DNA from: Desulfobacteraceae bacterium
Lineage (GTDB): Bacteria; Desulfobacterota; DSM-4660; Desulfatiglandales; Desulfatiglandaceae
Direction: 5' to 3'
DNA: 35,602 nt
Assembly: GCA_030612945.1 (NCBI GenBank)
Contig: JAUWMY010000001.1
Coordinates: 1 to 35,602 of the forward strand
The position numbers and the translations under genes were made by a program. Positions 3,036 through 30,783 of this stretch are shown here, piece after piece. Under the pieces are notes generated by a model, which saw only the letters and a program-made list of their open reading frames with translations, had not been told where the DNA came from and ran no database searches. The stretch's first letter is position 1. The number at the start of each line of letters is the position of its first letter.

Positions 3036-3177
3036 AATAAGTGCCTAAAGTGCCTAAAGTGAACTAAAGTGCCTAAAGTTATGGAACGCTCCGCTGATCT
3101 ACATCGAGGTTTTTGTCAAAACAGGAGCGAAGCGTTCATCCAATAGTCAATAGTCAATCGAAAATAGTCAATTCTTA
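3036..3177. repeat. full composite junction element: nonamer array AAGTGCCTA x4 (3039-3080), core inverted repeat GAACGCTCCGCT (3084-3095) / AGCGAAGCGTTC (3126-3137) around a 30-nt loop, heptamer array AATAGTC-like x5 (3142-3176)
   Basis: Read directly from the sequence. It fills the entire gap between the tape-measure stop and the next gene's TTG start. Confidence 0.9.
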
Positions 3178-28500: not shown

Positions 28501-30783
28501 ACTCTCACTCTGATACATCAACGCCATTTTGGCCCTGTAATCATCGTAATAATCCTCATCCCGCATATACTGCTCCGTCTCCTCGAAATACCGCATAAAA
28601 GCCTGCTCATCCCGCATAATGAGCATGGCCTGGCTCTCCATCTCCAACAGCTTCTCATACCGATCCGCGTCCTCCATCTTGGGCAACTGCTCCCATATAT
28701 CCACCCGCGTCTGATCCGCATCCAGCTTCTCAAAATCCTTCTGAATCTTCTCCTTCTCCGCCTCAGATAAAGGCAGCGCCAGAACTTTCTTTTCCTGTCT
28801 TCTGTCTTCTGTCTTCTGTCTTCTGATTCCAAACCCCGCATTCTCAATCTGCGATCTCACCTCCGGCACCACCGACAACTCCACAAACTCCCTGGCCGAC
28901 GACACTGTCGATTTTTCCAGCCCCCGCTTCAAACCAATCTGCTCGGCAAGGAGCTTCTTATCCTCATCATCACCCAGGTATCCTGCCGCGGGATGTACCT
29001 TTGGCGGCGGCACTGCCTCGCACACAAACTCATCGCCCTCATAGACCAGGATAGAGCTCGGGTCCTGGAGATCGTATTTAATAGTCACATCATGCTTGCG
29101 CCCATACAGCTCAGGGTCGTAATACCACCGGCCCAGGAACTTAATGCCGTGCCTGCGTATGGTGCGGACGTCCTCGCTCATCATAAGGTACCTGAGCCTG
29201 TTAATATCCACTCCATCACCCTGGCCGGACGAAAAAACCTGCCAGGGGTTTTTCCCCGCCAGGTGTCCCCTCTGTGGCCGCCGGGCATATTCGTCAAACC
29301 AGGCCGCAATGGCCCGGTGCGCCTGAAGGAGCGTCGGCACAAAGCCACCGGTGATTTTTTCATGTATCTGTCGATGGAGTTTTTCCCCGCGATTGAGACG
29401 CGGTGGCTTTTCGGCAATGGAGGTACCTATATAGGAAGGAGACATCCGCTCTAACTCGGCGAATGTCCCGAAGAATCTCTCAATGGTTTTGGACTGGCCA
29501 TGATACGGCCAGGCGTATATGGATTTGATGTCTAACTTATCGAATATACCGTTAAAACCCGTCTCATCAAAGTCCACTCCACGGAAAAACCGCGAGGCGA
29601 ACGCCCTGCCGTTATCCAGATAAGCCACCTTCGGAATTTTACCCAGCCGGATAATGGCCCGGCGCAGGGCCGAGCTGATGGCCTGTGTATTTTCCGTGGG
29701 CATGATCTCCCAGCCCAACGGGTAGCTCGATTTCATGTCATACCAGAGGATCAGGATCATTCTCTTTGGTTTGCCCGTCCAGGGGTTCAGGATCTCGAAA
29801 TTGAGCACATGACCGTCGGCCACCACAACATCGCCCACGTCTATCCGGTCGTAATCCCGCTCGATCCAGGGCAGAACCTTATCATTCAGGCCTTTATCCC
29901 CTTCTCTCCACCAAATCCACTGGTCGTAATTGACCGATATCCAATCTTTGAGAAACCGGCGATAAGTAGAATCTGAAAGACCATCCTGGATGCCCTTCTG
30001 TCCCATGATGGCCTTTGAAATCCTGATTATCTCTGATGTTTTTTTGGGTTGATAAGGTGAGCGCACAACCGAAAGTATCACCTGGGCCTGATCCTGGTTT
30101 ATCGATCTCTTTTTCCAACTACTCCCATACCTGGGAGCCAGGACCGTATAGTTAGCCCCATCGGTAGTCTGGAGCTGTCTTAATTTCCGCTGTAAAGTTT
30201 GATATGAAGTCTGACCTAATATCTCCAACAGCTTCGGCCAGGCCCCATTATTATATGCCAGGACAAAATCCCGCTTAGCATCCCCTACGGATCTCCTGAT
30301 ACTGCCCTTTTGAGCAGTATTCCGCATATACAGGCTCAACACGTCCATCCAGGCCAGAGCCTGCCGATCCTGCCACCCCCGGAGAGGCCTATCGGATGAA
30401 ATGCTGTCTATATTAACAGTATTTTCAACCAATCCCCTTTCCGGCACACCTTTTGCAACCTTATATATACTATCCACTGCCCTCTGATCGGAGTTTATTC
30501 CGGCTTGTTCCGGTCCCTGGCTCTTTCCCCTCTTCCACAAGATGTTGTGGTCCAAGGAGCTCCCGGACATACAAGATGTTGTGTTTTTCCTGCTTCGCTC
30601 CATCATAACCGCCATCCTCACATCCTCAGGTAGCCCACTCACAATAAACCGCTGATCCCCGCGATTATTTACAATATTGACTGGCCATCCTTCTTTTTTC
30701 GCCCTCCGCCTTATTGTCCTTTCATTCTGCCCTAATATCTCCGCCAGTTCCCATTTTGTAATAGTCTCATCCAGCCCCTTCAT
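28498..30783 (-). CDS. MuA-like DDE transposase (761 aa), with a heptamer array in frame ~105 codons before the stop
   Basis: N-terminal Mu-type winged HTH (ITKWELAEILGQNERTIRRRAKKEGWP). DDE candidates are in VVADGHVL, AYLDNGRAF and GQSKTIERFFG. CTGTCTT x4.5 at 28795-28829 encodes RRQKTEDRRQEKK. Confidence 0.9.
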   Translation of the reverse strand: MKGLDETITKWELAEILGQNERTIRRRAKKEGWPVNIVNNRGDQRFIVSGLPEDVRMAVMMERSRKNTTSCMSGSSLDHNILWKRGKSQGPEQAGINSDQRAVDSIYKVAKGVPERGLVENTVNIDSISSDRPLRGWQDRQALAWMDVLSLYMRNTAQKGSIRRSVGDAKRDFVLAYNNGAWPKLLEILGQTSYQTLQRKLRQLQTTDGANYTVLAPRYGSSWKKRSINQDQAQVILSVVRSPYQPKKTSEIIRISKAIMGQKGIQDGLSDSTYRRFLKDWISVNYDQWIWWREGDKGLNDKVLPWIERDYDRIDVGDVVVADGHVLNFEILNPWTGKPKRMILILWYDMKSSYPLGWEIMPTENTQAISSALRRAIIRLGKIPKVAYLDNGRAFASRFFRGVDFDETGFNGIFDKLDIKSIYAWPYHGQSKTIERFFGTFAELERMSPSYIGTSIAEKPPRLNRGEKLHRQIHEKITGGFVPTLLQAHRAIAAWFDEYARRPQRGHLAGKNPWQVFSSGQGDGVDINRLRYLMMSEDVRTIRRHGIKFLGRWYYDPELYGRKHDVTIKYDLQDPSSILVYEGDEFVCEAVPPPKVHPAAGYLGDDEDKKLLAEQIGLKRGLEKSTVSSAREFVELSVVPEVRSQIENAGFGIRRQKTEDRRQEKKVLALPLSEAEKEKIQKDFEKLDADQTRVDIWEQLPKMEDADRYEKLLEMESQAMLIMRDEQAFMRYFEETEQYMRDEDYYDDYRAKMALMYQSES
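28795..28829. repeat. heptamer array CTGTCTT x4 perfect plus 1 imperfect, in frame inside the transposase ORF
   Basis: Read directly. Confidence 0.92.

Follow-up and report, generated by a model that had tools for sequence, protein, structure and literature searches.

The stretch of DNA analysed here, referred to as the window, comprises positions 1-35602 of contig JAUWMY010000001.1 from a Desulfobacteraceae bacterium (assembly GCA_030612945.1). The long open reading frames (ORFs) at 646-31536 are all on the minus strand and make up a Mu-like transposable prophage, and most gaps between its genes are filled by arrays of very short tandem repeats. An earlier note on this DNA described these arrays as a modular grammar that punctuates the gene junctions. 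In our best explanation, to which we give a probability of about one half, this grammar consists of small, nested, palindromic selfish elements resembling intervening sequences (IVS) or miniature inverted-repeat transposable elements (MITEs), together with their decayed halves, and is not a purpose-built phage code. The elements have a common anatomy, are dispersed and nested, and differ in presence between related phages; their arrays are shared with bacterial chromosomes, where they bracket genes of the PF05635 four-helix-bundle family, and their core is restricted to phage DNA.

Arrays were called with Tandem Repeats Finder (TRF), with 50 dinucleotide-preserving shuffles as the control. The window contains 45 non-overlapping short-period arrays, against a shuffle mean of 5.4; the corresponding figures are 23 against 0.6 for arrays of period 7, and 29 against 0.78 for arrays scoring at least 40. 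Forty-one arrays lie inside 3036-28829, i.e., 1.59 per kb, while TRF calls none in 1-3035 and a single weak period-9 match in the host flank at 32.9-35.6 kb. At least 8 families of array unit coexist in the window, and all of those named in the earlier note were recovered by TRF and motif scans. The estimate that about 25 of some 50 junctions carry arrays also stands, at roughly 20-25 of about 45. Minus-strand phage ORFs are separated by 24 gaps of 10 nt or more, 19 of which (79%) contain an array with a period of 6-10 nt, and nearly all arrays are positioned between a stop codon and the following ribosome-binding site (RBS). As a correction to the earlier note, some arrays enter the 3' ends of ORFs or sit inside an ORF (28795-28825). 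Near-identical copies do occur far apart, as had been claimed: exact repeats of 43, 38, 31 and 30 nt connect junctions separated by 7-20 kb, the 43-nt repeat joining 9939 and 17450 and the 38-nt repeat joining 3141 and 23537. This identity of 30-43 nt is found despite unrelated flanking genes. The number of units per period-7 array has a second mode at 4-5, a class that holds 17 of 28 arrays in the window and 98 of all 253; with the AATAGTC family set aside, it holds 40 of 173. Above 5 units the numbers fall sharply.

Many of these arrays are the arms of larger units. The core sequence GAACGCTTCGCT/AGCGAAGCGTTC has 7 exact copies in the window, and GAACGCTNCGCT has 11. A complete element is a nested palindrome, with arrays of heptamers or 9-mers as its outer arms, a 12-bp GC-rich core inside them and an A/T-rich loop. 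Read in the mRNA sense, the left part runs from the stop codon through (A)GAATTGA(C/A)TATT and about 4-5 GACTATT-type heptamers to GAACGCTNCGCT. The right part consists of the A/T-rich loop of 26-34 nt, in which the small palindrome TTTTGACAAAA is frequent, followed by AGCGNAGCGTTC, about 4-5 AATAGTC-type heptamers, a Shine-Dalgarno sequence and a start codon. Either arm can be replaced by an array of 9-mers (AAGTGCCTA / TAGGCACTT), giving the heterotypic elements A and B described below.

Five complete array-core-loop-core-array elements, A to E, lie on the minus strand at 3036-3174, 6671-6837, 9044-9182, 9937-10069 and 17437-17597, and there are several half or decayed copies. In the mRNA sense, element A shows the stop codon of the tape-measure gene followed by a GACTATT-type arm, the core GAACGCTTCGCT, a 30-nt loop, AGCGGAGCGTTC and a 9-mer arm of CTTTAGGCAC; its predicted fold is -31.7 kcal/mol (z -2.4). 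Element B is heterotypic and located 3' of the major tail gene (6838-8304, which like the other genes named in this paragraph is on the minus strand). It has a AAGTGCCTA 9-mer arm, the core, a 34-nt loop, the inverted core and an AATAGTC arm, followed by the RBS, and its fold z-score is just -1.2 because its two arms do not pair. Element C, 3' of the head-tail adaptor gene (9183-9608), has a fold of -32.1 (z -3.3), and its loop is the reverse complement of that of element A, with a 30-nt inverted exact match between 9105 and 3092. Element D, homotypic and directly 3' of the major head gene (10070-10981), is a near-perfect hairpin of about 45 bp (-41.9 kcal/mol, z -6.3). Element E lies between the gene for a small, terminase-small-like DNA-binding protein (17598-18041) and that for the large terminase; it has a fold of -45.9 (z -3.8), and its left core is split into GAACGCT and CCGCT by a nested 16-nt palindrome, CTCTCCGAGCCGGAGG.

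The incomplete copies include two half elements on the minus strand, F at 20068-20154 (a decayed copy with a GACTATT arm, one half-core and a TTGAACC array; z -0.17) and G at 26699-26753 (a AAGTGCCTA 9-mer array with one half-core; z -0.05). On the same strand, a solo AATAGTC-type arm is found at 11903-11960, directly 5' of the RBS of gene 11030-11902, and a solo GACTATT-type arm at 23519-23570, directly after the stop codon of gene 23571-23783; over 38 nt the latter arm is identical to the arm of element A. The half-core AGCGAAGCGTTC with an AATAGTC arm occupies 24104-24150 on the minus strand, between genes 24146-24646 and 23798-24121. A small core-less inverted pair of GACTATT and AATAGTC arms, to which no strand is assigned, is located at 20637-20700 within the 198-nt gap 20503-20700. 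Altogether, about one third of the copies are halves without a significant fold.

The palindromic anatomy bears on how the apparent grammar is to be read. The order of parts on the mRNA strand, which the earlier note described as recurring, is indeed seen, but it follows automatically because the element is a palindrome and reads alike on either strand; the loop, which does have a direction, occurs in both orientations relative to transcription, one way in A and B and as the reverse complement in C and E. We likewise rejected strand polarity as evidence for a function in RNA. GACTATT-sense arrays follow stop codons in 17 of 44 cases, and AATAGTC-sense arrays precede start codons in 15 cases against 4 in the opposite sense; however, a palindrome of the form 5'-(GACTATT)n...(AATAGTC)n-3', and any half of it left in place, will always show this bias. 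The central N/N' position of the core stem is complementary in 4 of 12 hairpins and mismatched in 8 of 12, while the rest of the stem is nearly invariant. Thus, the core arms look conserved as sequence, and not as helix.

The elements do not match the known classes of signal examined. None of the five complete elements was called as an intrinsic terminator and the decayed copy F alone matches weakly, in agreement with the view that these are not ordinary terminators; at 3000-22999, 29 terminator-like sites compare with 23.1 +/- 5.0 in shuffles, which is not a clear enrichment. Promoter-like sites in the same interval number 26 against 17.5 +/- 3.9 in shuffles, again without clear enrichment, and the TTGACA of the loop is not accompanied by a -10 box at a suitable distance; sigma-70 promoters were therefore rejected. 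Of the Rfam 15 models, only tRNA-Met passes in the window, the remaining hits being three weak miRNA-model matches far under their gathering scores. Nor are these clustered regularly interspaced short palindromic repeats (CRISPR), as had been said from the outset, since the units are 7-9 nt and arranged head to tail, whereas CRISPR repeats are 23-47 nt with unique spacers.

We compared orthologous junctions between the window and relatives of its phage. These relatives (L004, L006, L010, L055, L056, L062, L066 and L067), whose proteins are about 75-92% identical, came from scanning IMG/VR and JGI metagenomes for exact patterns. Element E (161 nt) is missing in L004, where the two flanking genes overlap as ATGGCTAA; at the filled site, diverged copies of this 8-nt overlap, ATGGCTGA / ATGGCAAA, flank the element in a manner that resembles a target-site duplication. 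Element C (139 nt) is missing in L006, where the gap is 5 nt, and no target-site duplication is found at the C site in this comparison. At the junction of element A, L056 retains the left arm and the core, with a different loop, a different right arm and an extra nested palindrome; this relative also carries an insert similar to the 16-nt palindrome of element E, further nested. Core elements follow the major tail gene in both the window and L055, with differing arms, and L006 has unrelated arrays there, without a core. At the junction 3' of the major head gene, the arms in the window are of the GACTATT type, and L062 shares the core while having 9- and 10-mer arms of the AAGTGAACT type and another loop; L066 has the same arrangement as L062 at this junction, though it is cut by the end of the contig. 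The gap at 13610-13650 contains a GTCAGAG array in the window, an unrelated CATAGGG array in L004 and 7 nt in L010. The solo arm at 11903-11960 is conserved at the orthologous junction in L004 and L066, the latter retaining a half-core as well, and a similar arm is found in L067 at the junction of 24104-24150.

The earlier note stated that the elements do not look like a MITE. This is contradicted by the presence/absence polymorphism, by one filled site with a duplication-like repeat, by the nested insertions and by the occurrence of the loop in both orientations. The differences between orthologous junctions read as the marks of dispersed, inserting and recombining DNA, and not as those of conserved regulatory sites. 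Element D has no DNA match among GenBank phages. In Pseudomonas phage H70, an example of the nearest cultured relatives, arrays were found in 0 of 20 gaps, with one weak period-7 match; the junction architecture is thus not a general property of Mu-like phages.

The arrays themselves are not private to phages. An exact 23-mer of the AATAGTC module (TTGACTATTTTCGATTGNCTATT) is present in 38 chromosomal stretches of GTDB representative genomes, with 44 matches, all but one of them intergenic. The metagenome-assembled genomes (MAGs) concerned are labelled Desulfobacterales/Desulfobacteraceae, Ca. Magnetocorallium, Planctomycetes, Pirellulales, Sedimentisphaerales, Bacteroidetes, Melioribacteraceae and others. 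Annotated flanking genes are all housekeeping or other chromosomal genes, such as those for pyruvate phosphate dikinase, smc/ftsY, subunits of methylmalonyl-CoA mutase, glnA, UDP-glucose dehydrogenase and the CCA-adding enzyme, and no homologues of the window phage proteins were found in these loci. A second module behaves in the same way: TTCACCGCAGAG recurs in chromosomal loci L011, L022 and L040, and in L022, within a chromosomal beta-oxidation operon, the stop codon of a thiolase gene is followed by TTCACCGCAGAG...CGCAGAG, by a core fragment with an AATAGTC arm and then by a crotonase gene. The arrays between housekeeping genes in MAGs of several phyla, and the TTCACCGCAGAG/CGCAGAG module in this operon, do away with the idea of a private phage system. 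Moreover, imperfect 23-43-mers that include the variant unit TTTTCGA are identical across junctions and across phyla. As regards the taxonomic labels, near-identical contigs (L011, L012, L019, L022, L033, L040 and L046) have been deposited under archaeon, Bacteroidales, Anaerolineales, Pseudomonadota and Desulfobacteraceae labels, and wrong labels or wrong binning are probable for several of these low-coverage bins. Contig size and gene content still speak for a spread over phyla, for example the type IX secretion system (T9SS) sorting domains in L035 and a 631-kb Planctomycetes contig.

On chromosomes and plasmids the same kind of array encloses a gene. At the recN locus of two related MAGs (L046 and L012), inverted AATAGTC arms enclose an ORF of 125 amino acids, in opposite orientations, which by domain match encodes a four-helix-bundle protein of PF05635, the '23S rRNA intervening-sequence protein' family. 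Between these two MAGs the segment with the four-helix-bundle gene is flipped and the outer inverted arrays have not moved, consistent with recombination between the arms. Close homologues of this subfamily number 3822 (E <= 1e-10), of which the best 120 are 76-97% identical and come from MAGs labelled as different phyla. Seven independent sites in MAGs and metagenome contigs were inspected, namely recN/lipoprotein, thiolase-like/fadB-like, adh/fba, gspE/gspF, oppC/oppD, livH/livM and hemB/radical SAM. All are between chromosomal genes, mostly within a co-directional operon, and all 7 have (G/T)ATTGA(C/A/T) heptamers 5' of the PF05635 ORF and inverted TCAAT(A/C)(G/T) heptamers 3' of it. The termini of these cassettes (AATTGAATATTGAC...) match those of the phage elements. 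In one pair of loci (L069 and L070), the site and the protein are identical and the upstream array differs by a 2-unit indel. AATAGTC-type arrays are the terminal inverted arrays of PF05635 cassettes.

The association extends to distant members of the family. On plasmids of cultured bacteria that span 4 phyla (Bernardetia, Planktothrix, Gloeocapsa, two Nostoc, Anabaena cylindrica, Ca. Chlorohelix and Treponema saccharophilum), eight PF05635 genes with identities of 32-52% were inspected, and period-7 arrays bracket all eight. The units of these arrays are organism-specific, i.e., TAAAATC; AATCCCC/AATCGTA; ATTTTAG/CTAAAAT; AGATTGC/CAATCTG; CAATTCG/CGAATTG; AAGTAAA; GGATTTT/AATCCAA; and AGGAAAG x41 with CTCTCCG. 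Overall, the unit varies by organism, and proteins that are 76-97% identical share units of the ATTGAC/ATTGAA type. In N. punctiforme the inverted arrays around the gene are complementary, (CAATTCG)n and (CGAATTG)n. On N. punctiforme pNPUN02 and on the Treponema plasmid, 50 kb each were covered, and in both stretches the period-7 arrays scoring at least 40 are confined to those that touch the four-helix-bundle gene. The plasmid genes, too, are inside operons (drmD/mmeI, DUF1156/Swt1-HEPN, cas2/cas1 and fabH/M20 hydrolase). In total, period-7 arrays bracket PF05635 genes at 15 of 15 sites in at least six phyla (L046:3700-4180, L012:700-1260, L026:380-940, L069-L093 and plasmids L098-L108). Several of these sites are in defence loci: cas2/cas1 in L103 (Anabaena cylindrica pANACY.01), DISARM drmD/mmeI and DUF1156/Swt1-HEPN; the group also includes L099 (Planktothrix), L100 and L104, and the DUF1156/Swt1-HEPN position is common to a cyanobacterium and a Chloroflexota organism. 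On the Bernardetia plasmid, a perfect TCACTAA x9 array (L108:11387-11449) is placed just 5' of an inositol-monophosphatase gene, far from any four-helix-bundle gene, so array-rich genomes also carry free-standing arrays, as described for TAACTGA repeats. The searchable literature yielded no paper that links the PF05635 family with heptamer arrays, and none with a tandem AATAGTC string. No PF05635 protein is encoded in the window, and two IMG/VR scans found neither full four-helix-bundle cassettes nor this subfamily in phage contigs.

What distinguishes the phage copies is the core. The half-core GAACGCTNCGCT has 34 copies in about 98 kb of phage DNA, which comprises the window, its relatives and a second phage type (L007 and L064) that has its own portal and major head genes and no detectable protein in common with the window. 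It has 0 copies in 220 kb of array-bearing chromosomal loci, and none either in the four-helix-bundle loci or in host-relative DNA. Among the DNA examined, then, the 12-nt core is found in phage DNA only. A metagenome-wide scan for the full hairpin gave 19 matches; the 8 with flanking arrays are all on contigs of the two phage types, from one sample series (Ga0307376-79), and the other 11 are unrelated hairpins without arrays.

Array density follows a similar division. Among gaps of at least 10 nt, arrays are present in the 19 of 24 (79%) already given for the window phage, in 10 of 19 (53%) in its relatives, in 6 of 18 (33%) in the second phage type and in 6 of 9 (67%) in another viral contig, L009. 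In 29 kb of host-relative chromosome, picked through the sensor kinase alone (87% and 72% identical), they are present in 0 of 20. In MAG loci that were ascertained via one array, 22% of the remaining gaps contain arrays. The earlier note had considered that arrays might be equally dense in host intergenic DNA, as a genome-wide repeat background; the host-relative proxies, at 0 of 20 gaps against 79% in the phage, do not have such a density. In two gaps of the same host-relative chromosome (L096/L097: 6604-7064, 14575-14952 and 21221-21524) there is a palindrome of a different kind, CCGTCCTCCGCAGTAGCCTGCTACGGAGGACGG, which contains GTAG, is unlike the phage core and resembles repetitive extragenic palindromes (REP). 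A PF01797 Y1-transposase (Y1_Tnp) gene is located at the end of the L096 locus, and the two may together form a system of REP doublets (REPINs) with their associated RAYT transposase.

Inverted arms, then an ORF or a hairpin, then inverted arms, all within a transcription unit, is the layout of an IVS, and on this basis we read the phage elements as gene-less relatives of the PF05635 cassettes, in which the gene would have been replaced by the 12-bp GC-rich core hairpin and an A/T-rich loop. How they spread, and all of their effects at the RNA level, we infer. The phage-only core would circulate among phages, and the elements would insert, recombine with one another and change their number of units. 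In a tightly packed phage genome, the only tolerated sites may be those between a stop codon and the next RBS. Being inside the long late and early transcripts, the elements would be transcribed and would fold into stems of 20-45 bp, most likely to be cut by RNase III or to act as barriers to 3' exonucleases, by analogy with rRNA IVS, STRR hairpins (short tandemly repeated repetitive sequences) and REP hairpins. Segmentation of the polycistronic mRNA would then be a by-product, perhaps co-opted 3' of the major head and major tail genes.

Several observations weigh against this explanation. No enzyme that would move the elements was found: the phage encodes MuA alone, and no transposase adjoins the cassettes examined. 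Of the two filled/empty pairs, only one shows a repeat resembling a target-site duplication. Pure selfishness leaves unexplained the gap in density between phage and host-relative DNA, 79% against 0 of 20. Nor does it account for the major head and major tail junctions, which in several relatives are occupied by elements that are non-orthologous in sequence; this recurrent occupation and the density gap both hint at selection. Finally, the conservation of the core as sequence looks more like that of a protein-binding site than that of a neutral hairpin. Phage enrichment, recurrent occupation of the head and tail junctions and sequence conservation of the core keep functional rivals alive, of which selected RNA punctuation and protein-binding arrays are the two main ones.

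In the former, which we consider rather unlikely, the hairpins would be selected to set the stability or translation of segments of the late transcript, for example by protecting the messages of the major head and tail proteins, with the sequences being interchangeable. Such a role would fit the enrichment in the phage over host-relative chromosomes and phage H70, the retention of arrays in 53% of the gaps in relatives and 33% in the second, unrelated phage type, the placement exactly between stop codon and RBS and the strong folds of homotypic copies; convergent retention is suggested by the different elements at two junctions, that 3' of the major head gene in the window and L062, and that 3' of the major tail gene in the window, L055 and L006. 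However, C and E are missing in close relatives, where the genes abut or overlap, the heterotypic element B (z -1.2) and the halves F and G (z about 0) do not fold, loop orientation flips, and there is no U-tract or terminator signature. The modules are also found in chromosomal operons and around PF05635 genes, and were thus not invented for phage gene expression. Nothing in the analysis shows a role in RNA stoichiometry or in silencing, both of which the earlier note had offered. It is quite doubtful, in our estimate, that the arrays are instead binding sites for a multimeric protein, most plausibly a pentameric four-helix-bundle protein of the S23p/Avd type, with the phage recruiting, titrating or exploiting a host protein at the level of DNA or RNA. 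The 15 of 15 bracketed PF05635 genes, whose array unit varies by organism and is shared among proteins 76-97% identical, point in that direction, as do the mode at 4-5 units with its sharp drop above 5, the homopentameric structure of Xanthomonas S23p (PMC4990558), the core arms conserved as sequence rather than helix and the bAvd relative encoded by the phage's diversity-generating retroelement (DGR). From the 4-5-unit mode, the homopentamer and the unit that tracks the protein subfamily, one may speculatively derive one heptamer per S23p subunit. Against this, the 4-5-unit mode arises largely, though not wholly, from the copy-and-paste of one 31-nt module, Bernardetia also has arrays far from any four-helix-bundle gene, and the subfamily was not found in IMG/VR phage contigs, nor is a PF05635 protein encoded in the window. 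A wider proposal, that STRR-type heptamer arrays and IVS/Avd four-helix-bundle proteins are two halves of one system, is in our judgement a speculative idea with poor odds; here an array of about 5 heptamers would be a putative pentamer site with a co-evolving unit, the cassette would spread between phyla, and phages with dozens of gene-less, phage-core copies would exploit or titrate the host protein.

Two further explanations were considered. Slippage of the polymerase in place, favouring 7-nt units in any non-coding DNA as part of a host-type mutational background without any discrete element, seems to us very improbable. It draws on the 2-unit indel between L069 and L070, on the presence of at least 8 unit families side by side and on the arrays in 22% of the other gaps in array-bearing MAG loci; one paper also states that, among long simple-sequence repeats, heptamers form the largest class in many bacteria and that slippage tied to the polymerase footprint has been proposed (PMC4679880, citing Mrazek 2007). 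The host-relative chromosomal DNA, at 0 of 20 gaps, does not behave accordingly; identical imperfect 23-43-mers with the variant TTTTCGA across junctions and phyla indicate copying and not independent slippage; and the discrete boundaries, the nesting, the inverted-pair architecture and a copy-number distribution that is not geometric also count against slippage. That the arrays are recombination linkers, i.e., shared boundary sequences that promote homologous exchange of modules between co-infecting phages, is scarcely probable, even though two unrelated phage lineages from the same metagenomes have the core and arms in common and the heterotypic elements look like recombinants of array families with a common core. 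Between the second phage type and the window there is no detectable shared protein, and the one clear mosaic boundary examined speaks against linkers: L010 has a portal allele (L010:1880-3409) that is 38% identical while the neighbouring genes are 87-91% identical, and no arrays are present at either boundary of this replacement. The suggestion of module-exchange linkers is therefore not borne out by these clean boundaries.

The window also contains arrays of other families, all on the minus strand. TTGAACC arrays (GGTTCAA on the plus strand) occupy 8324-8357 as well as 13130-13156, 20061-20092, 22822-22840 and 25376-25394, and no copy of this family was found outside the window among the loci fetched. 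GTCAGAG/GTCAGAA heptamers (plus strand CTCTGAC) fill the entire gap at 13609-13650 and recur at 8408-8448 and 25856-25891. A CGCAGAG-type array of 8- and 9-mers at 28468-28492 opens with TTCACCGCAGAG right after the transposase stop codon, with further examples at 27794-27818, 25446-25470 and 26083-26106. Purine-rich heptamers (ATAGGAA/AGAGGAA in the mRNA sense) are found at 22347-22408, 22852-22883 and 23270-23364, partly in the 3' coding ends of small ORFs; in the region 22259-23518 they enter the C-terminal coding ends of three small ORFs, which thereby acquire K/E/R/G-rich tails. A perfect AAGACAG x4.4 array (28795-28825) lies in the C-terminal tail of the MuA-like ORF, and a GTTACGG/GGGTTRC x3.4 array (9619-9642) is associated with the 25-nt gap 9609-9633. 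A TTG 'start' at 13143 sits within a TTGAACC array. For annotation, this means that arrays produce false ORF extensions and false start codons, and that ORF callers mis-set starts and stops nearby. As for the proposal that the arrays place translation stops in all frames, a reading of the sequences indicates that GACTATT, AATAGTC and TTGAACC arrays would do so, and that GTCAGAG, CGCAGAG, AGAGGAA and AAGACAG arrays would not.

The prophage encodes a MuA-type transposase with a Mu-transpos_C domain (28498-30783, minus strand), a MuB candidate matching the AAA/TniB-like protein family (26754-27473, minus strand), a large terminase, a portal and a head protease, as well as major head, adaptor, major tail and tape-measure proteins. 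At the level of the major head protein, identity with Pseudomonas D3112/B3-like phages (e.g., phage H70) is about 60%. A repressor gene with a helix-turn-helix (HTH) domain match is located at 31781-32431 on the plus strand. In the region 31537-31780, between this gene and the divergent ner-like gene, the motif GTGTCCAG recurs together with an inverted copy, CTGGACA; these copies are probable operators, unrelated to the junction arrays. The 241-nt 'gap' at 6004-6244, between ORF 6245-6670 and the tape-measure gene, has coding-like conservation in L006 and L055 and is probably the frameshift extension of a tail assembly chaperone. A 30-nt exact direct repeat, AGTTTATTCCGGTATTCCCGGAACCCTCTG, which contains the palindrome TTCCGG..CCGGAA, is found at 8384-8413 and 23815-23844, at the 3' ends of two unrelated small ORFs, and similar small GC-rich palindromes are found at about 25397-25420 and at 10995-11015.

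The left end of the window, 1-3035, is not host DNA. MAG contig L001 is 99.99% identical to the window across the 12.2 kb common to both, and on this contig the phage runs beyond the left end of the window, through a tail fibre of the pectate-lyase type and a DGR, to the host RACo gene; hence 1-3035 is phage tail DNA. The tail fibre and the DGR, with its Lcl_C-domain target, bAvd and reverse transcriptase, are at L001:12685-18421, and a further core-plus-array element is found at 15080-15270 of that contig, in phage DNA left of the window. Host DNA in the window is confined to about 33022-35602, with tRNA-Met, a PAS sensor kinase and one more ORF. The best named homologues of the sensor kinase, 64-72% identical, are from MAGs of Desulfobacterales and Desulfatiglans, and the host is thus Desulfobacterota-like.

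Among known systems, the analogy with the STRRs of cyanobacteria is apt, given the excess of period-7 arrays (23 against 0.6 in shuffles) and their location in spacers. Mazel et al. reportedly described, in 1990, the units CCCCAGT, TTGGTCA and CAACAGT from heterocystous cyanobacteria, and the last of these, STRR3, is said to be CAACAGT and would be one base from the unit CAATAGT found here. Both have 7-nt tandem units in several families, located in intra-operon spacers and often as inverted, hairpin-forming pairs, as at hupS-hupL; the present arrays differ in their Desulfobacterota-like host, in their units (AATAGTC, GGTTCAA, CTCTGAC), in serving as the arms of core-bearing elements and, judged from host relatives, in being concentrated in a phage: the same modules are found in chromosomal loci of other MAGs, and none in 29 kb from host relatives. 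For the hairpins of 7-bp units between hupS and hupL, an effect on transcript stability or translational coupling has been proposed (PMC2670836). TAACTGA repeats, known from marine Beggiatoaceae, some Cyanobacteria and Bacteroidetes (MacGregor 2015, PMC4679880), are likewise heptamers, repeated 2-6 times just 5' of start codons, with a unit common to distant phyla and no known mechanism of transfer; a repeat-binding protein that is itself the mobile element has been suggested (PMC4679880). TAACTGA, however, is one unit, in forward direct repeats over the RBS position, whereas the phage arrays are mostly inverted pairs, located after stop codons and 5' of a normal Shine-Dalgarno sequence, in several families and with a core hairpin. 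The IVS of 23S rRNA are parasitic, have complementary borders, are excised by RNase III, in some cases carry an S23p ORF and are distributed sporadically and horizontally (PMC4990558). The folds and inverted arrays of the phage elements correspond to such stem-forming borders, and the PF05635 cassettes have the same order of arms, ORF and arms in a transcription unit. In contrast to IVS, all copies described here are between protein-coding genes and not in an rRNA helix, their arms are heptamer arrays, and the phage copies have no ORF, the PF05635 ORF being found only in chromosomal and plasmid cassettes with similar arms.

REP sequences, with the bacterial interspersed mosaic elements (BIMEs) and REPINs built from them, are also short, imperfect extragenic palindromes that form mosaics, are dispersed and nested in either orientation and are transcribed within operons, and REP elements stabilise upstream mRNA (PMC3116915). 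The core has no GTAG, though, no RAYT was found, and the core is absent from the 270 kb of chromosomal DNA examined. The likeness to MITEs lies in the terminal inverted repeats GAATTGA(C/A)TATT...AATA(G/T)TCAATTC, which recur at the ends of the elements, and in the possible target duplication; the differences are the tandem-array arms, the lack of any identified parent insertion sequence and the lack of a transposase beside any copy, the PF05635 gene being the sole cargo seen. Elhai et al. reportedly described, in 2008, small dispersed repeats of 21-27 nt in Nostoc punctiforme, said to be mobile hairpins nested in heptameric repeats and MITEs; the sequences and hosts are different here, and the core is restricted to phages. 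In some other phages, too, many gene junctions carry short recurring motifs or cassettes, as with stoperators and promoter early stem-loops (PeSLs). Mycobacteriophage stoperators are asymmetric 13-nt repressor sites in one orientation, and the PeSLs of T4-type phages carry an early promoter, whereas the elements described here are palindromic, occur in both orientations and are shared with chromosomes. The phage-restricted core and the general bracketing of four-helix-bundle genes by heptamer arrays both appear to be undescribed.

Heptamer arrays such as STRRs and TAACTGA repeats have been without an explanation since 1990, and their bracketing of PF05635 genes ties them to a very common four-helix-bundle family; this link makes both puzzles testable. 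In a Mu-like phage, whose junctions are normally gapless, most junctions are here filled by nested palindromes with a 12-bp core that is common to two unrelated phage lineages. These elements would represent selfish DNA of a new, phage-borne class or else a new mode of segmenting polycistronic transcripts.

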